DNA from: Candidatus Undinarchaeota archaeon
GTDB lineage: Archaea; SpSt-1190; JASMDC01
Length of the DNA stretch: 64,000 nt
Direction: 5' to 3'
NCBI GenBank assembly: GCA_964519305.1
Contig: CAZFHY010000003.1
Coordinates: 1-64,000 of the forward strand
Below, piece after piece: positions 1,246 through 22,371 of the stretch (positions are counted from its first letter, which is position 1; each line of letters begins with the position of its first letter). Below the pieces are notes generated by a model, which searched no databases, had not been told where the DNA came from, and saw only the letters and a list, made by a program, of their open reading frames with translations. The position numbers and the translations under genes are program-made.

Positions 1246-2739
1246 TCATGGGTATAAGGGATTACAGTCGAAGAAGTCTTCATCCACGTTCCCAAACGAT
1301 GGATTCGTGCACTGAGCACCAGTACCCCCTTGTCCGTACAGGTAATCGTCCAGGCAATCTGAATCCCGGTAGACAACGCGGACCACAACATCAGATGCTT
1401 CCCAGGTCGCATAAACATCTTTGCATGCTTCCTTCCATGCATCCCATATTTTCATTTCGTCATTTGTACCATCATCCACCATATAGTCAGCCCAATTCTT
1501 CATGAAGTCCTCATCAGAGAAGGGAACAACGGTCGTGAACCCGAGTAGGAGATGCGCCCCATCGCTAGCACCATTAGACATCATTCGGTAACCCCATGTA
1601 TCATAATCCTCATCATCCAACACATAGCATGAGTAGAATGCGAACCAGCGCACGTATTCATCACCTATTCTCATGTCAATAGGATGGACATAGTCCCTTA
1701 TTCGGTCGTTTCTTTTAAGAGATAACTTTGTAGGTAAACCGCCTGTTGAATTGCCACAATAGATGGATAGCGATTGATCGTCGATGCCCCAGTTTGCATC
1801 CTCGCCATAGGACTTTTGCTCATAATCTACGAAGTCCATCTCCCAGACGTCATCTCCCTCCCATCGATGCTTCTTAGTCCAACCTGAGCCGTTGTCGTCA
1901 ATCTCGTCCTCAAAGTAAGTGGCACCTGAGATGCACTGTGGATGTGCGACGTCGTCGGGAAGGAATAGCCCATATGTTTTGTTGTTCGAATGGTCATCGG
2001 TCAGTGGATATCGCACCCAGTAGAACTTCAGTTTCCTCGGTTCAGGGCCTTGCTGTATGCTATCATTAAGGCCCCACGTTATGGTGGCCTTCCTAAGGTA
2101 CTGTGTCTCATCCCAGTTGTAGGCTTCATATAAGACCTTGCGATAGTTCGCATCCCTGACCTCGACCTTGTCTTGGTAGAAGGGGTCGGGGATGTCGTCC
2201 TTGTGGAAGGTGATTCTTGCCCGCGTCCTCTCGCGATACGTCCACATGGTGTTGACAGAGACGGGTATCCGCCAGAAGGAGGAGTCTTTATCATAGGAGA
2301 TAACAGTGATGCCTGAGAACACTTTTGTGATATTATTGAAGCTATCGCTCGTGATATCAATCGGAATCGCCTTGGAATTTCCCGTGTTAGTTGCCTTGAA
2401 TTTGAAGACTGCGACCGCGTCGCTTCCAGGCGGGATTGTGCCGAGATCGACCGTCTTACATGTCTGGGGTACTGAACACCAGTCACCCAGCGCCTTCTTG
2501 CTCGCCTTGAATAAGAAGACAACATCGTCGAATCCGCCCAGTACCGCTTTAACATTCTGGTATGCTTCCCCGTCGCTGTTTGTCACCTTCAACGCGAGTG
2601 TGAAATGCACTGTCCGCGGTATGTTACCCAACGTCCCATCTGAGATGTCCGGTGAGTTGTCCACCGTCGGTGCACCTAGACATGAGATAATTAGTAAGAA
2701 TGCAGAAACAAGAAGTATCCAAACGTTTTTCACGCTCAT
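1246..2739 (-). CDS. Secreted protein: Ig/CARDB-like domain, DUF2341-like segment, C-terminal DUF6345-like domain
   Basis: Signal peptide MSVKNVWILLVSAFLLIISCLGA starts 1 nt after the upstream stop. VDLGTIPPGS is Ig-like. GDEYVRWFAFYSCYVL...GAHLLLGFTT...IWDAWK resembles DUF6345 as recalled. Confidence 0.65.
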   Translation of the reverse strand: MSVKNVWILLVSAFLLIISCLGAPTVDNSPDISDGTLGNIPRTVHFTLALKVTNSDGEAYQNVKAVLGGFDDVVFLFKASKKALGDWCSVPQTCKTVDLGTIPPGSDAVAVFKFKATNTGNSKAIPIDITSDSFNNITKVFSGITVISYDKDSSFWRIPVSVNTMWTYRERTRARITFHKDDIPDPFYQDKVEVRDANYRKVLYEAYNWDETQYLRKATITWGLNDSIQQGPEPRKLKFYWVRYPLTDDHSNNKTYGLFLPDDVAHPQCISGATYFEDEIDDNGSGWTKKHRWEGDDVWEMDFVDYEQKSYGEDANWGIDDQSLSIYCGNSTGGLPTKLSLKRNDRIRDYVHPIDMRIGDEYVRWFAFYSCYVLDDEDYDTWGYRMMSNGASDGAHLLLGFTTVVPFSDEDFMKNWADYMVDDGTNDEMKIWDAWKEACKDVYATWEASDVVVRVVYRDSDCLDDYLYGQGGTGAQCTNPSFGNVDEDFFDCNPLYP

Positions 2740-2740
2740 T

Positions 2741-5700
2741 TCAGGCACCTCCTTGGTCTCCTTCGTTCTTCTCAACATCTCCGACCGCAACCTCGATATT
2801 CATGGGGATGGACGGCCCGACAGTGTCGTTTCCTAAGTTCTCGGTTTCGTCGTCCATCCGGAAGTGGATGTAGTACTCCTCACCGTCCAAACTCATCGTT
2901 CCATTCGTCAACCATTCCGTGTCCCACTCGGCCGAGCATGACCGGTGTGTGCTATTCGAGTCCCACGTACGTATCCCGCGGTCAGCATCGGTCGAGCTTG
3001 AGCCCCCACCACCGGTGAGCGGGCCTGAGCCCGAGGAGCCGGGCTCGTATGCGTCGTTGTCAGAGACCGCGCCGGCCCACTTGATGTAGTGCTCACCGTC
3101 ACCACCGCCGGCACGTGTGTCGAGTGATACGATCCACGAGGTGGTGCCGTTCATACCGTAGCCGGGGAGCGTTGTTTCCACCCATCCCGCTTCGCCGGCA
3201 GGGATGTCTTCAAGGTCTATGGTGCCCGATGCCGGCCTGTTGCCGCTTCCGAGGTAGACGCGGAAGCCGTGGGACAGGTAATCGAACGTACGTGTTGTCG
3301 TATCATACTGACGGGGCAGGTCATACCAGGGATTGTCCTCCAGCCGCCATATGAGGTGTGCGCTGCTATCCGTGACATCGCCGTCGAAGTCGCTATTGTA
3401 GTGCCAGTATGCCTCACCGGAGCCACCTTCCTCACGGACCACGATGGCGTACCGGACGCCCGAACCAAGTCGGGTGCTCCCGTGGAACCGCACGGGGATC
3501 CATTCCTCGCACCCCGACGCGCACTCGGGAAGGACGGACATCGGGATACGCTCCTCGGCGAGGATGTTCCCTCGTGGTGTGAAGTCGACAGGCCCGTCGA
3601 CACGCACGGTGAGGTAGTGGAGGGAGTCTTCGTACCATTCGGTGTTATTCCCGTACCAGCCGTATGCACCGAACTCACCGTTGCCCTCGGCCCCCCAGAC
3701 GATCCTGTTGTCGTAGTCACCACCATCCTCCTTCTGCTTGACCACCACCGTGTACCACGTCCCCGGTGTCAGCGAGGGGCCGCTGGTGAAGTCGACGTAG
3801 AGAACCTGGTAGTTCGTCGTGATAGAGCCAGCAGGGATCTCGCCAGAGGCGATGACGCCGGTCTCGGGCTTACCTGTGGAAACGTCAGCCCCACGTATCT
3901 GCACGATGACGTCGCTCGGGCTCCCCACCTTCTTGAGGTAGAGCCCTAACCGGTTGACGGACGTACCGACATCAGTGTAGAAGGTGTTCGCACCATGTCG
4001 GGTACCATAGACGTTCCCAGAGGAAGCGTGGTTCGTGTAGCTGTACGCAATCACGTCGTAATCACCAGCCGTCTCCTCGATGCTCACCAGTAGGTCGCTA
4101 CCGCCGTCGCCCGGAGTGTGCATGAGCATCTCGACTCGATCCAGTGTACCGCTTGTCCCCGGTGTGAACACCTGGCCACGATAGCCCCTGTTCAGGATGG
4201 ACGCGCTGTCGTCCGTGCTGGTGTGTGAATCGGTTAGCGTCCCGCCTGTTGGCGCATCAGGGATGCCATCTCGGTCGGTGTCGGGGTAGAGGGATACACC
4301 GACGTTCGTCGGTGTGTTGGAGTTATTGGTAAACGCCTTGAAGGTGTAGACGTAGGTCGATGACGTCGTCCACGTGGTACCTGAGTCGGAGGATGTATAT
4401 GAGTTGCCCCTTGTGTAGATGTCGGCCGAGCTCGACGACCGGCGCCAGTTGTATCTGTTTGAAGAGCTACCTCCGTCCCCTGTCTGATAGGCGACGATGG
4501 CGTAGAGTTGGTGGGCCGTAAGCGAGGGCGGGCTCGAGAACGTGGCCGTCGTCCACTCGGGTGACTCACCGACATCGGACGCAGACACAGTAGCAGTCGC
4601 GAGCACGGTCGAGGTCATATTCCCGCACATCTCTGGATTCTTACAGTCCTCATCCGTACGGTTGACATCCCTGATCTCGACGACCAGATCGGCCGGTGAA
4701 CCGACCACCGAGAGCTTTAGGTCGACCTCGCTGAGTGTGATGCTGTGCTGCGGCCTGAAAGCCATACCCTCATGGTTCGCGCCATGGATCCACGCGTCAC
4801 CGTCACCGCTGAAAGAGGCCTGCTCCACCGCCCATCGTCCATTCGGATCGTTATAGTGGGTGCGAAACGTCTGGTCGTAGTAGTCGGTGCCCGTGTCGAG
4901 CATCTCCCACCCGCCCCCAGTGTCCTTCATCATCTTACCATCCGTGTACGGATCCTGCGTACTGGTTTTGTACTTCCACCTGATACTGTTCCCGTCCGAA
5001 CAGTCGGTACACGTCAGGACGATGACGTATACCGTGCCCGAGGATAGGTATGGTGGGGTTAGGAACTCCACCTCGAACCAGTCGGGAGAGCTAGGCAGCT
5101 CGCCCCGGACGAACGATCGCGAGGCCAGCGATGCACCCGTCGGGAATTCGTCCTCGCCTGTCGCGTAGACGGATACATTGAGCTCGTCGCTGGTGCCGGT
5201 CCCATACTCCCAGAGATAGAGCTCGAGCTTGGGAAGATAGCCTGAAATACCGGCGGTGAAGTTCTGACCATAATAACGGGACCCATAGATTTCTGCCTCG
5301 TTCGTGTATCCGTCCTGCCATTGGTCGAGCACCGGGAAGTACCGCCTAAGGCGTAGCATCAACTTCTCAGCATTATAAATGCCCTTGCCATCGGTCACGA
5401 TAAAGGCACGGTCGGCATTGGCGTCCACGTCGGACCACGCGGCGGCCCCGGCCTTGGTGAGGAACTTACCGCCATTGTACGTGTCGGTGGACGTGTCCGA
5501 ACCCCACCACCGCCACACCTCCTTGTCGGCGTCGGCGACCTCGAGCACGATGCAGTACGAGCTGCTGCTGACGAGTGATACTGAAAGACCTGAAGCGACG
5601 ACCCATCCGGACGACGTGCCCACGTAATTGGAGCTAACACTCACCTTGGAGAGGAGCGAGTCGGGCTCGTCGTCATCGTCTGTGTCTGAGTAGACGCTGA

Positions 5701-6757
5701 CGTTGAGCGATTCCGATGGTGTGCCGTCACGGCTGAGGACGAGGGCAACCCTGTCCATGGTGTATGTGCTGCCTGCGCTGAACGACTGGGAAAGTTTTCG
5801 AGTGTTGCCCGCACCTGCGATCCACGCCCGGAACGCGCGGTCGTCGTTATCGTATACATACCATGTCGAACCGCTGTTCGCTGTGAAAAGGAAGTCGCCC
5901 TCATCATAGCAATCCGTACCTGGACACCCTCGCCACCGATAGTGATTGTCAGCATTCCCGCCGCCATTCTCGGTCTTGATGTAGATGACGTAACCGTTCC
6001 CCGATGTGACGCTATAGGGGCTTGAGAACGTCGCGTTCTCCCAGCTCCCGTCCTCTGAAGTATCGCCCTTCGCGATGGTTGTCGACGCGAGTAGTGAGCC
6101 CGTTGGCTTGTGGTTGGTGTCCGCGGCGTACAATCGCACTTCAAGGTCGTCCGAAAGGCTCGAGTGCTCGTACAGCTTGATATACATCTCGAACTTCATC
6201 AGGTCGCCCGATGTCGTTGGCTCGAAGTACTGGCCCGCGTACCGGCTCCCGTAGGTGGATGAACCGGTGGAGCCGGTGTCCGAGTCCTGCTTCACATCAA
6301 GCTCTGCACCCCCCGCGGATGCGAACCCCTGCCAGTCATCAGAGACTGCGCTCTGGGTCTGGTCGGCGCCCGCGATAATGCTCTGAGTCAGGCAATCGTG
6401 AATGGAGGTGATTGCGGTTTCGTCGGCGAGAGAATCCATCTGTCCTTGGTCCTCGATCATAGATGGGGCGGTCTCGGTGACGTTATCCGATGTCCATGCA
6501 GACGTGCAGGTCGTGTTCGTTGTCGAGATGCACCACTCGCAGCTACCGAACCGGATGGCGGTATCGTCCGATATCTCGGCGATGAGCGTCACTGTGTCCT
6601 TCACCTGACTTTCGGAATCGCTCACGGCGACCGTGGGGCCAGTCGTGTCGGTACAGAGCGCAGGAGCCAAAAGGATGACGAGTATCATCGTGATAAAACA
6701 GGTATCCCTCAATGCAATAATATGTGTATACTCCATATTGTGTATGAAGAACTGCAT
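2741..6757 (-). CDS. 1338-aa secreted protein with seven nested copies of a choice-of-anchor-R-like beta-sandwich inside a split Ig-like domain
   Basis: Signal peptide FITMILVILLAPALC. Recurrent unit GQxFxxxxSGxLxxxxLxL...LxVxxY...PxGxxLAS...W....F......G..YxIV...W.....Y..G...DxxFR. RBS GGAAGGT precedes ATG 6757. Confidence 0.85.
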   Translation of the reverse strand: MQFFIHNMEYTHIIALRDTCFITMILVILLAPALCTDTTGPTVAVSDSESQVKDTVTLIAEISDDTAIRFGSCEWCISTTNTTCTSAWTSDNVTETAPSMIEDQGQMDSLADETAITSIHDCLTQSIIAGADQTQSAVSDDWQGFASAGGAELDVKQDSDTGSTGSSTYGSRYAGQYFEPTTSGDLMKFEMYIKLYEHSSLSDDLEVRLYAADTNHKPTGSLLASTTIAKGDTSEDGSWENATFSSPYSVTSGNGYVIYIKTENGGGNADNHYRWRGCPGTDCYDEGDFLFTANSGSTWYVYDNDDRAFRAWIAGAGNTRKLSQSFSAGSTYTMDRVALVLSRDGTPSESLNVSVYSDTDDDDEPDSLLSKVSVSSNYVGTSSGWVVASGLSVSLVSSSSYCIVLEVADADKEVWRWWGSDTSTDTYNGGKFLTKAGAAAWSDVDANADRAFIVTDGKGIYNAEKLMLRLRRYFPVLDQWQDGYTNEAEIYGSRYYGQNFTAGISGYLPKLELYLWEYGTGTSDELNVSVYATGEDEFPTGASLASRSFVRGELPSSPDWFEVEFLTPPYLSSGTVYVIVLTCTDCSDGNSIRWKYKTSTQDPYTDGKMMKDTGGGWEMLDTGTDYYDQTFRTHYNDPNGRWAVEQASFSGDGDAWIHGANHEGMAFRPQHSITLSEVDLKLSVVGSPADLVVEIRDVNRTDEDCKNPEMCGNMTSTVLATATVSASDVGESPEWTTATFSSPPSLTAHQLYAIVAYQTGDGGSSSNRYNWRRSSSSADIYTRGNSYTSSDSGTTWTTSSTYVYTFKAFTNNSNTPTNVGVSLYPDTDRDGIPDAPTGGTLTDSHTSTDDSASILNRGYRGQVFTPGTSGTLDRVEMLMHTPGDGGSDLLVSIEETAGDYDVIAYSYTNHASSGNVYGTRHGANTFYTDVGTSVNRLGLYLKKVGSPSDVIVQIRGADVSTGKPETGVIASGEIPAGSITTNYQVLYVDFTSGPSLTPGTWYTVVVKQKEDGGDYDNRIVWGAEGNGEFGAYGWYGNNTEWYEDSLHYLTVRVDGPVDFTPRGNILAEERIPMSVLPECASGCEEWIPVRFHGSTRLGSGVRYAIVVREEGGSGEAYWHYNSDFDGDVTDSSAHLIWRLEDNPWYDLPRQYDTTTRTFDYLSHGFRVYLGSGNRPASGTIDLEDIPAGEAGWVETTLPGYGMNGTTSWIVSLDTRAGGGDGEHYIKWAGAVSDNDAYEPGSSGSGPLTGGGGSSSTDADRGIRTWDSNSTHRSCSAEWDTEWLTNGTMSLDGEEYYIHFRMDDETENLGNDTVGPSIPMNIEVAVGDVEKNEGDQGGA

Positions 6758-9043: not shown

Positions 9044-10482
9044 TCAGCCTCTACGCTTGTCGAGAAGGCGTTCAAGGCGGTTCGGTGCAGGATCATCATC
9101 CTTTTCATTCTTTGAAGAGACGCTCTTGAACACCTTGGCCTCACGGTCGAGGACCTCGTTCAGACGCTCGTCGACCGTTCCATATTGTGTGATGCGGGAG
9201 CCTTTGAGCGGTCGCACCTTCTCGAGGATACCACGTTTCAGCAGAGCCTTGATGGCCTTCTTAGCATCGCTCTTCTCCAGATTGCCGTCACGACAGATAG
9301 TGTCCAGTTCTTTCGGTCCCTCGTCGAGCGCTGCGATGATCCGTTGCTGCTCGGGTGTGAGGAGAGTCATCCCACGTTTCTCCTCGATAAGGCCGGCTGC
9401 GAACAGAGCGTTCTGCCAGGTACCATATCGCTCGACATATTCCTCGTACCGGGGAATACCCTTGGCTGAACGCACGTCCCCGACTCCGGGTAAACTTCCG
9501 ATGTCCTTCGAAAGGCGTACCAATCCTTTGACGAACTCATCGTCGGTCGGTAGTGCTTTCCGTGATCTCTTGAGCCCTGCAAGGTGCAGCGCTTTACGCC
9601 AGGAACCGAACCGCAAGCGATAGGTCGCTGGATGGGGGAAGTCCTTCATCCCGATCATGTCCTCGATCCGGGGAGTGCGATCGAGCTTTTCTGCGACCCG
9701 GTGTAGCGCAGCGAGCAGCTCGTCATCAGAGTACCGGGCCCTCTGGGTCGATGCAAGGCCGGCCTTGCGGAGCGACTCCTTCCACGAACCGAAGCGCTTT
9801 TGATAGGTGAGGGGAGGTTCTTGATACCGGCGGCCTCGCTGGACTTCGGTGCCCTTCCAAGGCGTTCCGCCGTTTCCTTCAGGAGCTTGAGGAGATCGTC
9901 GTCGGTGTACCGTCTCCTACCGCGCTTTCCGGGTCGGAGCGCAGCTCGTCTGAGAGCTTCTTTCCATGATCCGAAACGATTGATGAACGTGGCGGGCGAT
10001 GGGCAATCATCCCTTTCCCCGAGCTCGGTCGTGGTCGGAGCGCGACCCAGTTCTTTACCAAAACGCCGAAGGATATCGAGGAGCCCATCATCGGTGTACT
10101 TGGGCTTGCGTCCGCGTCTACCGAGACCGGCCTGCCCGAGCGCTTTGTTCCATGAACCGAAGCGCTTCTGATAGGTCAGTGCGTTCGGGAATCCCTCAAC
10201 GGTCAGCAGCTCGTCCGCCTTGGGCGCCCTGCCCAGGATCGTAGCGGCCCGTTTGAGGTGTGTGAGGAGCTCGTTGTTGTTATACTCCTCACTCTTCTTT
10301 CCTTCCCTCAGAAGTCCGGCCCTCGATAGCGCCTTTTTCCACGAGCCGAAGCGCAACCGATAGGTCGCCGAGTGGGGGAGTCCCTTCTTTCCCTGAAAGT
10401 CCTCCACCTTGGGCGCCCTACCGAGCTGCTCAGCGACGCGACGGAGCGCATCAAGCAGTTCAATCTCGGTATATCGGGGCAT
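9044..10482 (-). pseudogene. Homing-endonuclease-associated-repeat protein (six repeats plus C-terminal winged helix), split by a frameshift near 9808-9814
   Basis: ORFs 9655..10482 and 9044..9658 both carry YxDDELL..L.....LGRAP.......PxxxTYxxRFGSWxxALxxAGL. The fourth repeat continues in another frame as TYQKRFGSWKESLRKAGL. The C-terminus LTPEQQRIIAALDEGPK...LLKRGILEKV is wHTH-like. Confidence 0.8.
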
Positions 10483-12241: not shown

Positions 12242-15200
12242 CTAGTACCTGACCGTGGAGTTGGAGTACTGGCCGTAATAGGAGCCCATGGGCGCAGCGG
12301 GCTTCGGGGGGCGTCGCCGTGAGAACAGTAGAGCTGCCATGGGGATGAGGACCACCGCGGCCAGGATACCTACGATGAGGACGCCGCTCCATGAGATGCT
12401 CCAGCTTTCGCCTTCCTCGGGTGGTGGTGTGGGTGTTGAGCTCGGACGGTTCCATGCGGCCAGGATTCCGTTCGTATCGAGCCGGGCATGGAGCTTGTCC
12501 ATGTCACGTCCTGCCCGTTCGAGGGCGTACTCAGCATCGGACTGGCGCCCGGCATCTATGTGAGCGCGCACCTCATCGAGCACCTCCCTGATCGCATCCG
12601 CCTCCTCATCAAGAGCGTCGAGTTTCTCCCTGTTGACGGTCTCTGCGTGCCGCGCGCTCTCCAGAGCGCTCACCGCGTCCTTCACCTTCCGGGATATGGT
12701 GGCCACACGCGCCGTGACCACCTGCAAGGGTACGTCGGACGATACCCTGACCGTGAGGTTCGTCGAAGTGACGACATCTCCTTCCATCATCAAGGTCAAG
12801 GGAACTAGGACCTCACCCGTCGTGTCAGCGATATCAACGGTAACGACGACCTGAGATGCGTTCCCCGGAGCAATTGTCAGATTGAGGGGTGTGATGGTCG
12901 TTCCGTTCCGATCTGCGACGAGCGTGCAGTTAGCCCATCCATCCGTCGGATTCCGGACCGTCACGGTGGCACTTGCGGGCCCCGGTGGGCTCGCATCGAT
13001 GGTCGAGTTTGTTGGTAGCTCCAGTACGAGAAGCTTATCGCAGGGGCAGTCCTGTGGACATGTTTGGCAATCTTCACCTGCCCCACATGCACCGTCACCA
13101 CAGACGATCTCGGCACTGCTCACGGTAATGTCCAGGTACGCGGTCACCATCTGGACACCGCCCGTCACATCGATGGCCACTACATGAGTACCACCGGGTG
13201 CATCGTGAGGGATGGAAACGCGACCGAGGACCATGCGTTGGACACCGGCGGGGATGGATAGTCTACTGACGTCGAGGATGACCCATGGGGCAGCAGTTCC
13301 TGCCTTGAGAAGAGTCAGCGCGGCCTTGGCATCGCCTTCACCTTCATTGAGCACCGGAAAGTAGAAGGTGACCATCGATTCAGGATCGCCCGATATCGCG
13401 ATACGTGGTTGGGGGAGGCTGAGAGGGGAGGGTCCAGTGTCCTCCACGTTAACAGTAAGTGGCACCTTCGCCAATACATCACCGGAGCTCTCTTTTGCCA
13501 GGACCACTTCACCCTTCCCGCTCACAGCGCTGTTGGCCTTTAGCGTGAGCATGACGCTGCTCTCCATTCCGGGCTGGACCAGGAGGCGGGAAGGCAATAC
13601 CTCGATAGTGGATGGATGCTTGACCTCCATGACGGCTGCAAAGTAGGCGGACTTGCTGAGGCTCGATATGGTAAGGACCTCGGTCCCTTCACCCTCCTCG
13701 GCCGATAGCGTCACCGCCTCGGGCTCTATGAGGAAGCAGCCCCCACAATCATCCGGGCATAGCTCGCACGTCTCACCCGCATCACACGTCCCATCGCCGC
13801 ACGGGGGTGGTGCGCACCCGTACAGGTCGGCGTCCGCTGCTCCCGTCTGACATCTGAGCGGTGGTGTGCAGGTGCACTCCTCGCTCGTAGAGCAGTCCTC
13901 GCCTATACGCGGGCTGCACGTGCCGTCACCGGCGCATGTCTCAGCACTGCAGTCAGGGCACCCCGCATCGCACTCCCCACGGTCGATGTCACATACCTTG
14001 TTCCCGCAGGCGGGATTGTAGCATCCCATCCAGTCAACACCGGCCTCACCCGACCTGCAGACCAGTCCGCTGGAACAGAGGCAGTCTGCAGATGTCGTGC
14101 AGTTCTCGCCGACGATGGGGCTGCACGCGCCGTCACCGATACACGTCGTTGCGTTACAATCGACAGCGCACCCGGAGAGGCATTCTCCTGCCGTCTTGTT
14201 ACAGACACCGTCCCCACACGATACACGGACGCAGCCGGTCGTGTCCCGCAGGGGATCTGAGATGCTGCAATGCATCCCGCCAGGACAGACGCAGTCACCG
14301 GAGCTCGCACAGCTCTCGCCGATGGCTGTTGAGCAGGAGCCGTCACCGATACAGGTTGCGAGAGAGCAGTCGCTGCACCCGTCCGCACACTCTCCGGCCT
14401 CGCACCGCTGGTTCCCGCAGAAAGGATCGCGACAGGTGAGGTTCCCGTCACACCAGCGTCCCGTCCCGCAATCTTCGTCGTCAAGACAGTCATGCCATAC
14501 TCCTTCCAGACAGTACTCGCGCTCTTCTCCGAGCAGTGTGCTCTCCCCAGACGGGTAGAAACTGCCTGCGTTAAGACATGACCCTTGGAGGCCGCACAGG
14601 CCGGTCCCGTTCCTCTCCTGCGCGCACCATTCAGAGAAGCACGCTCCATGGTGGTCGCATACCGCACCATGGGCGAGTTGAGGGATCCATGCCGTGTCGT
14701 TGCACCAGTGGTCCGCTGCCCGGCCAAAGAGCGGGTAGCAGGTGGCGTTGAAGACGCATTGCGTCGCGCAGCAGTAGCGTCCGTCACCGTCGACGTCGTC
14801 CACGCACTGGTTGCTCTTGCACTCATAGTCCTTGGCGCACTCGGACGCGGTAAAATACCGCCAGGACCCGCTCTCGCAGTACCGGTCCTCGATCTGGCTC
14901 CCCTCGGGCATGCAAGTATCCGCATGGGGGCACCCTGGTGACGCGCAGCAGACGCTCCCCTCGTCCGAAGAGGCGCAAGTGTCACCCTGGCACTGGAAGT
15001 AGTGATGGCACGGGGATCCCTCCTCCCGCTTCGGTTCCCAAGAGCCGGTTACGTTGCAGAATAGTCCGGTGGCCTGACCGAATGTAGGGGAGCATATGCC
15101 ATCGTACACACAGTCGCGAGGACAGCACACACCCTTCCCCGTGACCACGTCCTCAGCACAGAGGCCGGCGGTACATTCCCAGTCCGCGGTGCAGGTAGCG

Positions 15201-16018
15201 CCATCGTGGCGCAGCACTCCCCATTCACCGGCGCAGTACATCCCCTCGAGCTGGGTCCCGTTCCTATAGCATATCCCGCCCGAGACGCACTCGCGGGCGC
15301 AGCAGATGGACGGTCCGCCCTTCACGTCCTCCACACAGGTGGCGTTGGCGCAGGCTGCCGATGTAGTGCATGCGGCACCATCGGCCAGCTGGTCCCACCA
15401 CATGTCATCACAGTACATCGATCCTTCCCGTGTACCGGACGGCACACATCTGTCCTCGAGAGCGCATCCTGAAGCGCAGCAGAGATTGCAGGAACAGTCC
15501 ATCGTCGCGACGCACCGTCGATCAGAGCACATCACAGGGTGAGCGGGATCGCACAGGTCCCCGTCCACCTTACGGGGCTGCCAAAGGGTGTCGTTGCAGT
15601 ACCGGTCCCCGGAGATGTCGACAAGAGAGACGAAATTGGTCCTGTCCCCGTGGACACAGTTGCCCTCCGGAGCACATGTCCCCTGGGCGTTCTCCCAGTC
15701 GAGGGCACAGTTACCGGACGTGCACTGTGTGTCGGTTGTGCAGGGATCACCATCGGGGGCCTTAGCGCATCCGCTGATGCACGCGAGCCCGTTCTCGCAA
15801 CCAGCATCGTCCTTCCGGCACGTTTCGTCCGCGGAACAGAGCCCGTCACCGCAGCATATGGCGCCCTCCACTACGCACATGCCATCACAGCATCGACCTG
15901 GATCGCACGTGTCATGATCCTCGCACGGATCTCCGCCAACAGCTGTCGATATGAGGAGGATAGTAGAGAATAAGCACGCCCACAGGACCGTCATCGGGAC
16001 ATTGCTTATCCTGCTCAC
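12242..16018 (-). CDS. Cys-rich single-pass surface protein (1258 aa): Cys repeats, Ig-like domains, helical bundle, TM helix, Tyr-containing tail
   Basis: Signal MTVLWACLFSTILLISTAVG; CGDGxC and CxxDxxCxSxxC repeats; TM GVLIVGILAAVVLIPMAALLF; tail RRRPPKPAAPMGSYYGQY. Confidence 0.88.
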   Translation of the reverse strand: MSRISNVPMTVLWACLFSTILLISTAVGGDPCEDHDTCDPGRCCDGMCVVEGAICCGDGLCSADETCRKDDAGCENGLACISGCAKAPDGDPCTTDTQCTSGNCALDWENAQGTCAPEGNCVHGDRTNFVSLVDISGDRYCNDTLWQPRKVDGDLCDPAHPVMCSDRRCVATMDCSCNLCCASGCALEDRCVPSGTREGSMYCDDMWWDQLADGAACTTSAACANATCVEDVKGGPSICCARECVSGGICYRNGTQLEGMYCAGEWGVLRHDGATCTADWECTAGLCAEDVVTGKGVCCPRDCVYDGICSPTFGQATGLFCNVTGSWEPKREEGSPCHHYFQCQGDTCASSDEGSVCCASPGCPHADTCMPEGSQIEDRYCESGSWRYFTASECAKDYECKSNQCVDDVDGDGRYCCATQCVFNATCYPLFGRAADHWCNDTAWIPQLAHGAVCDHHGACFSEWCAQERNGTGLCGLQGSCLNAGSFYPSGESTLLGEEREYCLEGVWHDCLDDEDCGTGRWCDGNLTCRDPFCGNQRCEAGECADGCSDCSLATCIGDGSCSTAIGESCASSGDCVCPGGMHCSISDPLRDTTGCVRVSCGDGVCNKTAGECLSGCAVDCNATTCIGDGACSPIVGENCTTSADCLCSSGLVCRSGEAGVDWMGCYNPACGNKVCDIDRGECDAGCPDCSAETCAGDGTCSPRIGEDCSTSEECTCTPPLRCQTGAADADLYGCAPPPCGDGTCDAGETCELCPDDCGGCFLIEPEAVTLSAEEGEGTEVLTISSLSKSAYFAAVMEVKHPSTIEVLPSRLLVQPGMESSVMLTLKANSAVSGKGEVVLAKESSGDVLAKVPLTVNVEDTGPSPLSLPQPRIAISGDPESMVTFYFPVLNEGEGDAKAALTLLKAGTAAPWVILDVSRLSIPAGVQRMVLGRVSIPHDAPGGTHVVAIDVTGGVQMVTAYLDITVSSAEIVCGDGACGAGEDCQTCPQDCPCDKLLVLELPTNSTIDASPPGPASATVTVRNPTDGWANCTLVADRNGTTITPLNLTIAPGNASQVVVTVDIADTTGEVLVPLTLMMEGDVVTSTNLTVRVSSDVPLQVVTARVATISRKVKDAVSALESARHAETVNREKLDALDEEADAIREVLDEVRAHIDAGRQSDAEYALERAGRDMDKLHARLDTNGILAAWNRPSSTPTPPPEEGESWSISWSGVLIVGILAAVVLIPMAALLFSRRRPPKPAAPMGSYYGQYSNSTVRY

Positions 16019-16074
16019 GGTCCCTCTTAAGCATTAAAACAATAAATAGCCTAGCCCGGATCTTTCGAGACCCT

Positions 16075-19000
16075 CTAGGCGTACCGCGTACCGTAGTATG
16101 AGGGTGATTCCTTGCCTGTCACTAGGTCCACAAGCTCATCGGCTAGGGCCTCGGCGGTCTCCTTGGTCCCTGCAAGACAGGTGATGGTGATGCTGACACC
16201 CAGGACGCCACGTTTCCCGTGTACCTTGACCGCAACGGTTTCGCCCGTCGTTCCCTCGCGACCGATGTAGCCCTCGTCAACACGTTCACCGGGCCTCCTA
16301 TGAGCGAACGCTTTTGCGAGCGGAGTGCAGACATGTTTGACGCTCTCGAGCACTGACCGCATCCCACCTTTGACCGAGAGGGAACGAGTGGTCCCGATGA
16401 GCCCTGAAGTGGCCTCCTCGAAAGCCTCCTCGTCCATGGTGAGAGGACTGATCAGGGGCAGGACGCTGGCCACGGACACAGGAGCTGCCCGCTCGGTCGT
16501 GGGTTTGCCCCCGCGGCGGTAGTTGATAATGGCCCCGACCGTCGAGCGTGCGGGTGTGAGAGGGCTGACGTAGAGCATGCTCATATGGTAGCCGTCAGCA
16601 GGGATGGTCCCTACTGCTTCTTGGAGTGAGACGCCCGGAGGTGGTGCGAGTTCGCCGGGGAGCTCGAACTCGATAACCACATCGAGCATAGGAGTATGTC
16701 CCGCGTTACGTGCCGTGGCCGTGAGCGCCGTGTAGCCCGCTTGCCGTGAGATGGAAAGAGCGAGTGTACTAGGACCGCGCTTGAACCGATGCCTGACAGT
16801 GGCACCGATGAGCGAGAGGACCATCAGCACTGCGATCCATGGGACGATCATCTTGATGGTAGAGAGAGCACCGCCTGCCGTGGACGTCCCCCATCCGCCC
16901 CCCCCTCCCGGCGTGATCGACAGTTCCCTGCACTGGGAACCAGGGAGCTTGAGGAAGGTGATACGCGATGCCTTGACGTCATCCTGTGAGACCTTCTTCT
17001 GGACCGAGAAGGAGAGGTCGACCTTACTACCGCTCTTGAGACGGTCGACGCTCCAGAGAACGACGGGATCGTTGACCACCACCCGGACGTCCTGCCTGAA
17101 TGTGACACTGCTAACGGACGCTGCAAGTTCTTTGGGGATGAGCTGGAGGACGCAGAAGTCCTCTTCGTCTTCGGTGCCGGTGTTCTCCACAGAAAGCGTG
17201 ACCACGGTCGCGATCTTTGGCTCACCGGTCCCATCGGCCGTTTGGAGCGCGACCTCCATGACATGGCCCTTTATCACGACGCCCATCCGCTCGCGCACGG
17301 CCTTCGAGGCAGTGACAACCCCGTCGACGATCTTTTCAGCGGTCTCTCCAAGAGATCTCTCGATGTCGAACAGCTCGAGCACCGATGGTATGGCGACCTC
17401 CTCGGGCTCAATCTGAGGAGTGAAGGACGACTTGGACACGGTGTTGACCGCCACATCAATGGCAAGGCGCTCCGTGATTATGCCTTGCACACGCTGGACA
17501 GTCTCCTCCACGCCCGTCACATCCCCTTCGCCCAGACGGCGCCAAGCGCTCTGGAGATGACGCTCCAATCCTGGAGGTGGTGTATTGCTCACGGCCATCT
17601 GGACGAGAAGACGCTCCTGGAACAGGGGAGAGGACACCTTTCGCTCCACATCGAGCAGGTCCTCGCAGGCCTCGTCACACCCGTCAGGTCTTCCTGCACA
17701 GACCGCAGCGCATCCCATCTCTTCGGCGAGGTCATGGATGGCAGCGGCCACTGGATCGGCCGGGACGCTCGATGGAATGGAGGATTGGTCCAGGTCGATA
17801 CCTTCGGTTATGAGCTCACCACCAGTATCGGTCCCCGGGATAATCGTCCCGTTGGGCCCTGTGGCGCTCGCTGTGGGTCCGGGCACGGTGGTTGGCACCA
17901 TCGTCGGGACCATGGACGCAACCATTGTGGGCATTAGGGTGGGCAGGAGCGTGATGCTGCCATCGGGAAGGGACGTGGGTGACGAAGTGGGGACCGTGGT
18001 CGGCATGAGGGTGGGTACTAGGGTCGTGACCATAGTGGGGGCCGGAGCAGTTGAGGGTGTTACCGGGATCTCATTACTTGCAGCTTGTTCGATATCGTCC
18101 GTGAGCGCGTCCACGCTCCCGAGAATACGCTCCATGCGTTGGAAGACGGGGAGCGTCCCTGTTCCGGATTCATCCTCATCAAGTTCTTGGAGCGCATTGC
18201 GTAATCGAGCCAGTAGCTCGGCGACTGTATCTTCGTCGAGAAGACCATCCCGACCCAGAGCTTCCACCCGCTCGATAAGGGCTTCGAGCCGTGCACGGGC
18301 AACGGCGGGGGCGACACGTCCCACTTCCTCAAGGGCAGCGTTAACTCGTCCTTGTTCCAATAATGCACGCGCTCTGCTCAACCTCATGTGGATCTCGGTC
18401 GCCTTTTCAGCTGTGATGAGACCCTTTTCCTCAGCAGTCTGGACGTCCTCGCGAAGGGTCTGGATCCATTCCCGAACCGATGACACCAGGTCCTCTGGAG
18501 AAAGTGTCGGGCCCGTACCGCCCGTGGGCGTTGGTGCCGGTGTGGGAGCAGAGGTGCGCTCAGCCTCGGCCACCTTGGCGAGGATCACTTCGATGGCCTC
18601 GATGGTGGCCGCCTGGCGGGCGATGACCTGTTCCAGATCGGCAGTCCCCGTTACGATATCACCCTCCTCGATGGCACGGAGCGTTTCCATCAGTCGTTCG
18701 AGGAGGTCGGCGAGGACCGCTTTATCGATTCTCCCCTCCCTGCCCAATGCCTCCAGACGCTGGATTAGCGCTTCCACCCGAGCTCGGGCCACGTCACGTG
18801 AGATGGTGTCAGCGATCATGAGCGCCTCGTCCTCGCGACCTGCATCGATCAGGTCGAGCGCCTCTTGGAGGCGATGTCGTAGTCGTTGGGCCACCTCGGT
18901 CGTGATCTCACCAGTACCCTCGGCACGTCCGATCTCCATCCATAGCGCGAGGATCCAGTCCTTTGTGGTCGTGGGCCGAACAGCCGTGGGTTGTACTGTA

Positions 19001-22000
19001 GCAGATCCCTGCGTATCAGAGGCTTGTTCGACAGTCCCCACTTCGGTGGCCAGGAGCTCTACGGTCTTTAGGAGGTCTGCTGCATTTGACCGGGCTAGCT
19101 GGAGGTCCGTCCCACTGGATGCACCACCTTCATCGATGGCCTTTAGCGCCTCGCGGAGCCGTTTGAGGAGCTGAGCAAGGGTTTCCTCATCGATCAGTCC
19201 CGCCAGTCCCATAGCTTCCACTCTCTGGATGAGCGCTTCGATCCGAGCTCGTGCGATGTCACGGAATATCGTGTCAGCGATGTCAACGGCACCCCCGACA
19301 TCGCCCCCCACCATAAGACCGAAGGCCTTCTCTAGGCTCCTGCGGAGCCGGGCTGCCATCTCGGAAGTGATCTCACCGTTCTGTTCAGCACGGGAGATGT
19401 CCTCCCAGAGCGAGAGCAGCCATTGGCGTACGTCATCAGAGGCAGGTGTCGGTGTGGCCGTAGGTGAGGGTGTAGGCCCGGGTGTGGCAGTGGGGCTCGG
19501 AGGAGGAGTGGGGGATGTAGTGTCCGAGGGATCTGCTGTAGGCGATGCGGAAGGATCAGGAGTGGGTGTAGGTGTGGGCGTGGTCGAGATGCTCGTTGTT
19601 GGTGTTGGCGAGATACCGGGAGGGGTCGTCGGTGATGGTGTGACTGACGGTGTCGCAGTAGGATCGGGAGTTGGGCTGGAGGTCGGCTCTATCGGTTCGC
19701 CTCCGATACACTGGCGGGAGGCGTCGCACGTGCCCCCCCGGGAACAGTCATCGTTCGTGCAACACTCTGCGGCCTCGTCCCAGGTGCCACCACAGCACGC
19801 ACCGGGGCGTCTGCGGCACGCACTCTCGCATGAGATGAATCCTGGAGCGCACAATGAGTCTGAGCATGAATAGCCATCGCAGGCATGACCGCCCCTGCAC
19901 TCCTCGTGCCAGCAGCACGCGGCACCGACGCGCCATCTCCCTCCGCAGCATCTTCCCTCGGTCGAGGGGATGCACTGGGCCTCACAGAACGTGAATCCGG
20001 GCTTGCACGGGGTCGACAGGCTGTAATGGACAGCGTACTCACCGTTACGATTGTCCTCCCATGCCACATGTACTACACCCTCGGCGTCAATGGCCACGGC
20101 CGGTCGACGCTGCTGAGTACCCTCGGGCGAATCGTCCACACGTGCGGGTTCAGTCCACTTCGTATCTCCCTTTGGCATGTAAGCGGTATAGATGTCGTAA
20201 TAGCTGTCCCAGACCACATAGGCGTTGCCGTTGTCCGCCACGGCGAGCATCGGTTCAGCGCGCCACCCATGCGATGCATCGAACACAAGGACCTTGGTCC
20301 CCCAGGTCTGTCCAGCATCATTGCTACGGCTCGTGTAGATATCGTACTCCTCGTCCCAAGCGAGGAGGAACCCCCCGTCCCTTGCGGCCAGGAGCGTGGG
20401 ACGGATCTGCCAGGGGCTTGGGCCAGGGTCCACGCGCGACGGTTCGCTCCATGACCTGCCACCATCAGTGGACCGTGACGTGTAGATCGCCTCTGAGAGC
20501 GAGGACCCCTCCTCCCATACCGCGACTGCGATCCCGTTCCCATCGATAGCCACGGACGGTATCCCGACACGAGCTGACTCACCGGACGCGATCATGACAG
20601 GGTCCGACCAGGTCGAGCCCCAATTGTTCGAGGTCACGGCGTACATAGAACGGTAGCCTGAGGCGATAGCGGTGAACACGGAAATGAGCCGGCCCCCCCC
20701 GAGAGCTATTGTGGCGTCCTTAGGGCTGTCGAGGTCCCCTGAGATAATCCTTGACGGCCCCCACGACGCTCCATTATCGGTCGAACTGGCAACGTACGCG
20801 GCACGTATGCTCCCATCCCTACCGGCCCACGCAGCGAACGCAAGCTCGCTGGGACCGGTCACTACCGTGGGCCTACCTTGGTCCCCGAACGAGATAGAGT
20901 CGACCTGGACCGAAGTGGACCATTCATAGCCTGGTGGTGATGCATGCGAGCTGCGGAGGTGGTAATCGCTCGTACGCGCATCCTGCCAGACAGAGAGCAG
21001 ACCGCCTCCACGGAGACCAACAAGGGCCGAATGGAGCTGTTTTCCCGATGCGCCCCTGTCCACCCTGATGTTCGGTGCGAAGTTCCTGGCGGGATCGATA
21101 CAGATGCCATCGACGCACCGTAGCACACCGGGGCATGGAGTGGAGGCCGAACAAGAGTATGCTGTGCATAGGTGGTTGGCCCCACAATACTGGTCAGTGC
21201 GACAATCCCCGTCATCGCAGCAGTCGCCCTGTGTGAACCACGCATTATCACAACAGACGCCCGGAACGGGACCGCAGGTGAAACCGCACAGGGCGTGGTC
21301 AATGCTGCATTCCGTGCGCGAGCAACGACCATCGAGGCACCTGAATTTGTTTATGCATGGGCTCGTAGCGGTGCACTCCGGTTGTGTGCAGCGGTGGTCC
21401 GTACCACAGATGTTCTCACCGGCACAGCCGCCGTCATGGCAGCAGTCACCACCGGCGTACCATTCGTTCTCACAGCAAACGCCGGGGAGTTGATCGCATA
21501 CCGCTCCACACCGGGTGTGATCAGCCCTGCACTCGGTAGCGGAGCACATGTGATCGACACACTTGAAGTTGCCGGGGCAGTGTGCGGTTTCGGTACACTC
21601 GGGCTCCTTGCAGTGCTTGTCGTCGTCGCAGTACTGCGATCCCGTGCAGTCCCCATCGCCACAACATCCACCTCCGGCGTACCAGATATCATTACAGCAC
21701 ATGCCGGGTGCGGGCTCGCACCATCTATCACACAGGACGCGACCTGTGGCACATTCGTTGGTCGAGCACTCACCATCGACACATCCGAAGCCGCCCACAC
21801 AGATCTCACCATCGTCGATATCGCCATTACAGTCATTGTCGATACCGTCGCACTCCTCGGCAGATATCTCCTCGTAGGTGACGTCAACGAAAAGCCGGAC
21901 CTTGAAAGAGCCGGTCCGACAGTCGAAAGTCCCCACGCAGGCGTCGATAGGGCAGGCACTCACCCACTCGTCCTTGGCAGTGAGGGAAAAACCAAGCATG

Positions 22001-22371
22001 ATCTTATTATTCACGAATCGGCACGCGGGCAGGGGGATTTCGAACGTCTCTTCCTTCCGCCAGGCATCGCACATCGGGCAGCAGCTTATGGGGACCTCTT
22101 CGGCCACGCACTCCAATGTGTCACCATAATCGCCGAACCGGTCGATCTCCACTCCATCTGCCGAGATGATGACCTTTTCTTCTTGCACAGCACAGTCGGC
22201 GGTGGTATCGTCTAGACCATCCAGGTTCCCCTTGAACCGTGCTTTGGCCGTGATCCCTGTGACGCGATAGTCCTGGACCGGCATGGTCAATACCCATTCG
22301 CCGTTCTGTACGTACTCGGCCTCCTCCCAGTTCGCGAGCCTCACCGAAGTGCTGATGCCAAGGCTTAGCAA
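16075..22371 (-). CDS. Giant single-pass surface protein (at least 2098 aa): Cys-rich repeats, Asp-box beta-propeller, Pro/Thr linkers, three helical repeats, Ig-like domain, TM helix, ~240-aa cytoplasmic domain
   Basis: [16 protein letters not shown] motif; Asp boxes [36 protein letters not shown]; [20 protein letters not shown]. The frame stays open to 22458 and the signal peptide begins upstream of TTG 22371. Confidence 0.88.
18180..19440 (-). repeat. Three ~105-aa helical protein repeats within the 2098-aa protein
   Basis: W(L/I)xxLxxxxxxAExxGxITxExA...ARAR(I/V/L)EALIxRxEAxGxxGxxD occurs three times, separated by Pro/Thr linkers. Confidence 0.85.

Follow-up and report, generated by a model that had tools for sequence, protein, structure and literature searches.

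A predicted secreted archaeal surface protein that appears to be built from beta-sandwich domains inserted within one another

The nested gene and the parse of its product

We analysed a window of 64,000 nucleotides (the whole stretch of DNA under study, positions 1 to 64,000 of the forward strand of contig CAZFHY010000003.1, assembly GCA_964519305.1) from an uncultured marine archaeon of the Candidatus Undinarchaeota. The subject is a gene on the minus strand at window 2741-6757, called here the nested gene, for which a sequence-only reading had proposed that seven homologous units (R0 to R6) of about 155 residues are inserted in one another, with the whole lodged inside a split immunoglobulin-like (Ig-like) domain. 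The 1338-residue product has an N-terminal hydrophobic signal-like stretch, preceded by RR in both homologues; this stretch ends in a Cys that all homologues conserve. The mature protein is acidic (isoelectric point 4.29; 188 Asp and Glu residues versus 82 Lys and Arg residues) and contains 14 N-x-S/T sequons. Positions 6-14 nt before the ATG are taken up by a Shine-Dalgarno-like GGGGGAAGG stretch, and the G+C content of the gene (58.8%) is close to that of the genome (59.7%). We consider it likely from the sequence that this is a secreted acidic surface protein of eight beta-sandwich domains, joined by insertion of domains into loops and not head to tail. The parts of the gene are listed below from its start to its stop, with residue numbers (aa) and the evidence for each part.

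2741-6757, minus strand: nested gene, one open reading frame (ORF) of 1338 codons, frame intact.
6653..6757, minus strand: start codon and signal peptide, aa 1-35; the Cys that ends the signal peptide is kept in all three homologues (translation and alignment).
6461..6652, minus strand: Ig-like (Big_7-like) first half, aa 36-78, and conserved Cys/Thr-rich connector, aa 79-99 (Big_7 profile 11-42, hhalign score 27.5 alone; 67% and 76% of columns invariant).
6368..6460, minus strand: R0 piece 1, aa 100-130, assigned as the first strand, DQGQ motif (103) and TQSI motif (DQxQ; hhalign 51.6 to 54.0; 65% invariant).
6317..6367, minus strand: R1 piece 1, aa 131-147, DQTQ motif (132) in a putative first strand (DQxQ in 3/3 homologues; 71% invariant; hmmalign junction at profile 14/15).
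5819..6310, minus strand: R2, aa 150-313, contiguous leaf (150.7 bits, profile 4-156).
5390..5818, minus strand: R1 piece 2, aa 314-456, domain body from profile ~19 (54.7 bits, profile 19-154; hhalign 88.5, 98.6%).
5336..5389, minus strand: R0 piece 2, aa 457-474, third strand (rank 3 for profile 33-43, z 4.9; hhalign 40.6 to 51.6; 72% invariant).
4853..5335, minus strand: R3, aa 475-635, contiguous leaf (147.8 bits).
4328..4840, minus strand: R4, aa 640-810, contiguous leaf, in tandem with R3 in the second R0 loop (150.0 bits; best NCBIfam stretch 662-806).
4253..4327, minus strand: R0 piece 3, aa 811-835, fourth strand and DTDRDGIPD loop (hhalign 31.6 to 40.6; rank 9 for profile 50-60; junction after profile 66).
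4064..4246, minus strand: R5 piece 1, aa 838-898, N half (profile 4-61, 28.8 bits; hhalign 53.6 on profile 4-59).
3593..4063, minus strand: R6, aa 899-1055, contiguous leaf inside R5 (122.7 bits, profile 2-155).
3248..3592, minus strand: R5 piece 2, aa 1056-1170, C half (profile 62-124, 22.0 bits; hhalign 46.1 on profile 62-142).
2960..3247, minus strand: R0 piece 4, aa 1171-1266 (profile 67-135 in the 66-domain model, 72-161 in the first model; 67% invariant).
2783..2959, minus strand: Ig-like (Big_7-like) second half, aa 1267-1325, with a WDT...NG motif (Big_7 profile 64-95 by hhalign).
2741..2782, minus strand: acidic tail of variable sequence, with the stop codon (GGAGGTG, within the final codons, resembles a ribosome-binding site for the next gene).

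A first hidden Markov model (HMM) was built from the four contiguous units (R2, R3, R4, R6), and a second one, of 157 positions, from 66 full-length domains taken from the matches of a search of 1.84 billion proteins. An outside-only profile contained 55 domains from other proteins. Spliced constructs were made in silico from a three-sequence alignment and compared with the profiles by hhalign.

The 66-domain HMM found full copies of the domain at residues 155-312, 476-634, 643-809 and 901-1053 (123-151 bits), which are the contiguous units R2, R3, R4 and R6. A near-full copy at 318-453 covered profile 19-154, so that the first ~18 positions were missing. The stretches at 841-898 (profile 4-61) and 1058-1122 (profile 62-124) were complementary and flanked the full copy at 901-1053, and a C-terminal part at 1172-1244 covered profile 67-135. 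The profile matches did not overlap, and the R0 pieces ended and started at profile 43/44 and 66/67. These coordinates bear out seven homologous units in a nested, non-tandem layout at the level of sequence, and the parse is confirmed. In profile positions, R2 enters R1 at 14/15, R0 is cut at ~30, after 43 and after 66, and R5 is cut after 60; the indel-prone columns of the family are 11, 43, 48 and 61, and three of the five junctions (14/15, 43, 60) lie at or near them. A host is joined to its guest by no more than 0-5 residues.

The splice test was clearest for R5. Its N half scored 53.6 against the outside profile and its C half 46.1, the two in native order scored 97.2, and in swapped order 54.4. 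R5 is thus a host split by a complete domain, with its two parts on complementary parts of the profile, and the claim that R6 lies within R5 is firm.

For R0, the last piece alone scored 18.8 against the outside profile, pieces 2-4 scored 40.5, and all four 44.0 (92.8%). Against the 66-domain profile, with pieces added stepwise from the last, the scores were 31.6, 40.6, 51.6 and 54.0 (95.8% for all four). The native order was the best of 6 permutations (runner-up 43.9). Column shuffles of pieces 1-3 gave 33.7 ± 1.8 with a maximum of 42.3, and 0/100 reached 54.0. These shuffles were used in place of a control in which random stretches of the same protein replaced pieces 1-3 (mean 48.1, maximum 84.6, n = 60); that control was discarded as uninformative because many such stretches derive from homologous domains. 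With a position-specific scoring matrix (PSSM) for profile 33-43, the top seven windows of the whole protein were one per unit, and R0 piece 2 (461-471) ranked third; pieces 3 and 4 ranked 9th and 8th for their strands. These comparisons leave an R0 interrupted at three loops well supported. The proposed division of R0 into four pieces held for pieces 2-4; piece 1 was not ranked by the PSSMs, and its assignment draws on a DQxQ motif and a small gain in score.

The first strand of R1 is where the parse is least secure. The DQxQ start motif occurs at profile 5-8 in 17 of the 55 outside domains, and the nested protein has three (at 103, 132 and 478; 0.04 expected), of which those at 103 and 132 are kept in 3/3 homologues. 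Domain starts therefore follow one another at 103, 132 and 154 (R2's own), and only the third is adjoined by its own body. Because the R1 body begins 5-6 residues past the end of R2, there is no room for an R1 first strand behind R2. We regard it as very likely that R2 lies inside R1 and is not in tandem with it; this placement hangs on 17 residues (131-147) and is backed by the motif, its conservation and the lack of room.

The outer Ig-like domain was compared with a Big_7 (PF17957) profile of 23 instances fetched from other archaeal genomes. The spliced halves scored 33.4-38.3 (probability 83-92%) and covered profile 11-95, the N half at 11-42 and the C half at 64-95, while shuffled halves gave 10.5 ± 2.1 (maximum 16.5, n = 60). 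In swapped order, only the N half matched. The archaeon's own genome yielded no Big_7 match. That the halves fall on complementary parts of the profile and score above shuffles gives moderate support to an Ig-like domain split around R0.

Several results weigh against the nested parse. Addition of 131-147 to the second piece of R1 produced no gain (88.5 before and after). The PSSM for the N-terminal strand placed neither 100-115 nor 131-147 in its top 14, that for profile 20-28 (the GQxF strand) did not place R0 piece 1 in its top 10 and left 131-147 unranked too, and that for profile 50-60 did not have R1 in its top 10. With the outside-only HMM, R0 was weak (22.6 bits, profile 42-134). Each Ig half alone lacked any Pfam match at E up to 10, and no unsplit Ig homologue was found among the six-frame ORFs of the genome. 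Lastly, the known full-length sequences number three, with one fragment.

Some of these results would be expected if the protein were nested only locally, with R6 in R5 and the remainder linear, R1 and 1171-1266 truncated at their N-termini, and 100-147, 457-474 and 811-835 serving as conserved connectors. The zero gain from the first piece of R1, the failure of the first-strand and GQxF-strand PSSMs to rank the first pieces of R0 and R1, and the weak R0 score all suit such a protein. It accounts poorly for an R0 score that climbs with each piece in native order only and that no shuffle reached, for a piece 2 that is the third-best match to its strand in the whole protein, and for the DQxQ motifs at 103 and 132. 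Conservation points the same way: among the three homologues, invariant columns made up 48-72% of the short host pieces and 48-80% of the leaves, versus 11% of the tail (aa 1311-1338). A sandwich without its first four strands would also be unlikely to fold. We therefore judge the locally nested protein improbable. An alignment by MAFFT that was enriched with single-domain relatives was dropped, as it placed hybrids across R3 and R4, and the close homologues alone were kept.

Taken together, profile coordinates and splice tests place R6 in R5, R5 in R0 and R0 in the Ig-like base, which is at least two levels of nesting. A difference between leaves and hosts in the outside-only HMM also speaks for the tree: the leaves R3 (130.5 bits), R2 (120.6), R4 (118.2) and R6 (92.4) scored above the hosts R5 (64.4), R1 (58.7) and R0 (22.6). 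The full topology that had been proposed, Ig(R0(R1(R2), R3-R4, R5(R6))), agrees with profile coordinates, splice tests and motif positions, with its levels unequally secure, and the branched tree is very likely right.

Homologues, domain family and bacterial relatives

Two full-length homologues share the pattern of the nested protein. One (P0002), from another source, is 72% identical, and the other, the paralogue P0003 from contig C17 of this genome, is 66-67% identical; both have the identical architecture. A search of representative proteins returned P0003 and the fragments P0004, P0005 and P0010. The P0004 fragment (1869-nt contig, 45% identity) retains R6 in R5 together with the R0 and Ig ends. 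No further loci related to the nested gene were found in the genome contigs or metagenome contigs searched, and no full-length homologue was found in 60 other genomes searched.

The nested gene was present in 8 marine or seawater metagenome runs from 2 studies, with no RNA among the 8, and contigs from 4 public runs cover it without one differing letter. In all four runs, a unitig break fell at window 5817-5848, a 32-nt word of about double depth. Since R2 is 86% identical in protein sequence between the nested protein and the C17 paralogue, this word is probably common to the two genes. Such a break, and the fact that repeats can mislead assemblers, might suggest that the architecture arose in assembly or belongs to a gene in decay. 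The seven units are only 16-34% identical in pairs, so there is no DNA-level repeat to mislead assembly, and the arrangement must be old. Furthermore, the 1338-codon frame is intact, the paralogue and the protein from another source have the same architecture, and the four runs agree to the letter. An artefact or a decaying gene is hardly credible on this evidence.

The repeated domain belongs to a known family. The nested protein matched NCBIfam NF041539 (choice-of-anchor R, choice_anch_R) at 61.8 bits (cut-off 30, E 7.1e-17) in 3 stretches, of which 662-806 was the best, and Pfam PF13313 (DUF4082) at 33.2 bits (gathering cut-off 28.4, E 5.9e-8). A Pfam scan at E up to 1 yielded, apart from DUF4082, one chance-level match. 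DUF4082 also matched 8 of 18 single-domain relatives, among which one carries a PEP-CTERM and one a VPDSG-CTERM sorting signal. The Pfam family Lectin_like (PF18560) matched the relative P0012 (30.8 bits, cut-off 27) and 2 of the 18 single-domain relatives, and it was not matched by the nested protein itself in the Pfam scan. A phmmer search of the PDB with the nested protein returned nothing under E 0.9. The profile of the 18 single-domain relatives found one solved relative, in the Staphylococcus phage 812 baseplate, where a 1152-residue chain matched at residues 794-946 (E 4.6e-12).

Interrupted copies are a minority in the family. Of 152 proteins examined, 125 had uninterrupted copies only, and 13 had both N and C parts. 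Among these relatives was a group of Dehalococcoidales proteins (NCBI name 'Chloroflexota bacterium') with a DUF2341 head, in which one whole domain is followed by k N halves, one whole domain and k C halves. Half-specific HMMs gave balanced N/C counts for P0159 (8/8; L043:4001-9220), the L045 protein (8/8; L045:3917-9148), P0160 (7/7), and P0161, P0162 and P0009 (4/4 each); P0009 was not found among the genome contigs searched. P0006, which is cut by its contig at both ends, has 12 N halves and then 9 C halves, and its nesting would be at least 12 deep. Three arrays speak against a strict pairing, as each has one N half in excess (P0007 7/6, P0158 8/7, P0012 5/4); this surplus may reflect repeat collapse in assembly.

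Two features of the arrays bear on which halves belong together. Counted from the left, N half number four is without its last strand in P0007, P0158, P0159, P0160 and L045. Counted from the right, C half number four follows 12-14 residues that match exactly this missing strand, in 5/5 of the proteins that have both halves. The divergence among halves was also mirrored: in P0159, the identity matrices of N and C halves correlated at r 0.90 in mirror order and at 0.11 in parallel order, and 0/5000 permutations reached the mirror value. In P0160, the mirror r was 0.83, reached by 0.2% of 5040 permutations, and for arrays of n = 4 the comparison was uninformative. The shifted strand and the mirrored divergence therefore indicate nested pairing in the Dehalococcoidales arrays. 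Their main split loop (profile 60/62) is the loop that holds R6 in R5, and the shifted one (~49) is near the second site of R0. The half-domains are 60-90% identical and young. P0008 (1476 aa, N-terminally cut) reads as nine C halves, then N N C C, then C C; by its order of halves, a second small nest appears to follow a deep one within the same outer hosts, and branching would then occur in bacterial relatives too.

The same arrays can be asked about run-away domain swapping, in which an N part would find its complementing C part in a different molecule, with oligomers or fibres as the outcome. The pieces to be joined are far apart (an insert of ~330 residues per R0 loop), the near-identical halves of the relatives could pair promiscuously, and three relatives have an unpaired N half. 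Host-guest connectors of 0-5 residues argue against swapping, the mirrored co-divergence of N and C halves fits fixed partners inside one chain, and the marker of the shifted strand sits at the exact mirror position. We consider such swapping very improbable.

There is a broader possibility, to which we lean only slightly: the choice-of-anchor R / DUF4082 sandwich may be a natural self-nesting module, in which one or two loops repeatedly accept whole copies. The Dehalococcoidales stalks, at least 12 deep, would lengthen or shorten as half-domains are gained and lost in pairs, and the archaeal protein would be an old, fixed, branched tree with a four-piece hub.

In the Dehalococcoidales locus L043, the nested-stalk gene lies behind two others (L043:2906-4004), one for a camelysin/TasA-like Peptidase_M73 protein and one for a signal peptidase S26. 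This neighbourhood is one that we take to recall the tapA-sipW-tasA fibre operon of Bacillus.

Proposed architecture and comparison with known systems

We propose that the chain probably forms a small branched tree and not a string of beads. The hub R0, a choice-of-anchor R / DUF4082 domain, would be inserted in the Ig-like (Big_7-like) base behind the third strand of that base. The R0 loop at about profile 30 would carry R1, itself very likely carrying R2; the loop at profile 43 would carry R3 and R4 in tandem; and the loop at profile 66 would carry R5, with R6 inside it at profile 60/62. Both chain ends would then lie in the Ig-like base, and three arms would leave the R0 hub, each through a joint of two chain strands. 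After export, the chain would fold from the inside outward. The four uninterrupted leaves at the arm tips may be lectin-like binding modules, multivalent for a glycan or surface ligand, and the three interrupted hosts (R0, R1, R5) may be mainly struts. In this way the nested protein would serve the cell envelope as an adhesin or multivalent binder, and translational coupling would have it produced alongside a DUF6345 protein. A role as adhesin or scaffold is suggested by the family context, namely sorting signals and weak lectin-like matches among relatives and the solved phage baseplate relative.

The closest architectural parallel is Si3 of cyanobacterial RpoC2 (RNA polymerase beta'), the six-level case of recursive insertion in a 2026 survey of 2.7 million domains (PMC13114784). 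Crystal and electron cryomicroscopy structures of Si3 show an elongated, well-ordered body (PMC10895346). Si3 resembles the nested protein in that copies of one small beta domain sit in loops of other copies over several levels, some nodes hold two or more inserts, and a loop of a further domain carries the entire assembly. The likeness is one of architecture and not of fold family, since Si3 is built of the sandwich-barrel hybrid motif whereas the nested protein matches DUF4082 / choice-of-anchor R. Si3 is also cytoplasmic and part of an enzyme, whereas the nested protein is predicted to be secreted and is archaeal. Unlike in Si3, the host R0 appears to be cut at three loops into four pieces by ~1000 inserted residues, and the structure of Si3 has been solved, whereas the architecture of the nested protein is a parse of its sequence.

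Other comparisons set the protein apart within its own family. Ordinary surface proteins with choice-of-anchor R (NF041539) or DUF4082 (PF13313) have the same ~155-residue domain in tandem or singly, whereas 3/7 copies are interrupted in the nested protein. The Dehalococcoidales DUF2341 proteins have the family and the main insertion loop (profile 60/62) in common with R5/R6, but they are bacterial and stack linearly, out and back, to depths from 4 to at least 12, in contrast to the shallow, branched and old archaeal protein. The Staphylococcus phage 812 chain has a single uninterrupted copy, is a phage protein, and was the only solved relative found by sequence profile. In a study of that phage, the baseplate tripod proteins have beta-sandwich, carbohydrate-binding and Cwp84 lectin-like domains with putative receptor-binding roles (PMC13433997), and we infer that the 1152-residue chain is the tripod protein (baseplate entries include PDB 9EUF and 9TIC, among others). 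In the engineered GL5/I27 pair, a guest domain was placed in a host loop and folding was coupled through the end-to-end distance of the guest (PMC5133956). That system is artificial, has one level and folds in a mutually exclusive manner, whereas the guest ends in the natural nested protein are presumably close together. Our literature search, which covered few subscription journals, found no publication on nested choice-of-anchor R or DUF4082 domains.

If the proposed tree is correct, its geometry would depart from what is usual at cell surfaces. Multidomain surface proteins mostly resemble beads on a string; here the same beads would be threaded through one another, and a three-armed hub would take the place of a rod. 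The joints would be two-stranded and hence presumably stiffer, and an arm should stay attached after a single cut. Inner domains would have to fold before the outer ones close. The 1338-residue protein would thus offer a natural test object for how one domain folds when ~1000 foreign residues cut it into four. The 2026 survey gives the rule that inserts are smaller than their hosts (PMC13114784), and the load of ~1000 residues on R0 would be the opposite. A depth of at least 12 in the Dehalococcoidales would be twice the six levels highlighted in that survey (PMC13114784). The nested archaeal protein and the Dehalococcoidales stacks together suggest that recursive self-insertion is not confined to Si3 of RNA polymerase. 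If this is true, nesting would be a general route by which cells, beyond phages or RNA polymerase, obtain multivalent heads and stiff, nick-tolerant surface stalks in which the two chain ends lie together at the base.

Partner gene, residue-level features and genomic setting

The nested gene is followed by a partner gene, which was identified as follows.

1246..2739, minus strand: downstream partner gene, DUF6345 protein (Pfam PF19872, E 4e-19; likely ATG at 2737-2739).

The stop codon of the nested gene and the ATG of the DUF6345 gene are 1 nt apart, with GGAGGTG within the final codons of the nested gene. The paralogous locus is arranged identically (stop, 1 nt, ATG, GGAGGTG), with a DUF6345 gene at contig C17 2756-4222 on the minus strand. 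The whole genome holds only these two DUF6345 genes, one behind each nested paralogue, and from their spacing both are predicted to be translationally coupled to the gene before them. The two proteins are 38% identical, and their genes have 48-49% G+C versus 59.7% for the genome. No DUF6345 gene was found in the genomes of 150 other relatives searched, and searches of PDB and NCBIfam with the partner protein gave no match.

Closely spaced Cys pairs occur in the nested protein at aa 278/283 (R2), 583/586 (R3), 705/711 (R4) and 1079/1083 (R5), and four more Cys (aa 73, 76, 84 and 1274) surround the site where the Ig-like domain is split. These may pair as local disulfides, which would pin down loops and the base of the insertion. 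Two acidic loops were also seen, DTDRDGIPD in R0 piece 3 (aa 820-835, window 4253-4300, where the chain leaves for the R5 arm) and DTDDDDEPD in R1 (aa 355-366, window 5660-5700). We take both to resemble the DxDxDG calcium-binding loops of thrombospondin type 3 repeats (TSP3); the Pfam scan of the nested protein gave no TSP3 match.

The genome has 3.63 Mb in 42 contigs (completeness 99.8%, contamination 4.3%). Its sole genus-mate has 3.8 Mb, and all 15 of the 15 listed genomes of the same class have 0.6-1.2 Mb. Genes for TFIIB and TBP, which mark the host as an archaeon, are among the neighbours of the nested gene. The TFB is 76% identical to its nearest named relative, which comes from a Candidatus Undinarchaeales MAG. 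Beside this TFB/TBP pair, at window 9044-10482 on the minus strand, lie two adjoining genes of 'homing endonuclease associated repeat' (HNH_repeat) units. Further giant surface-type ORFs of 1258, 2098, 3326, 1094 and 1738 aa occupy window 12242-22371 (minus strand) and 37221-57620 (plus strand). The 3326-aa ORF combines bacterial TSP3 repeats, an F5/8 type C domain and a binary-toxin-B-type Ca-binding domain.

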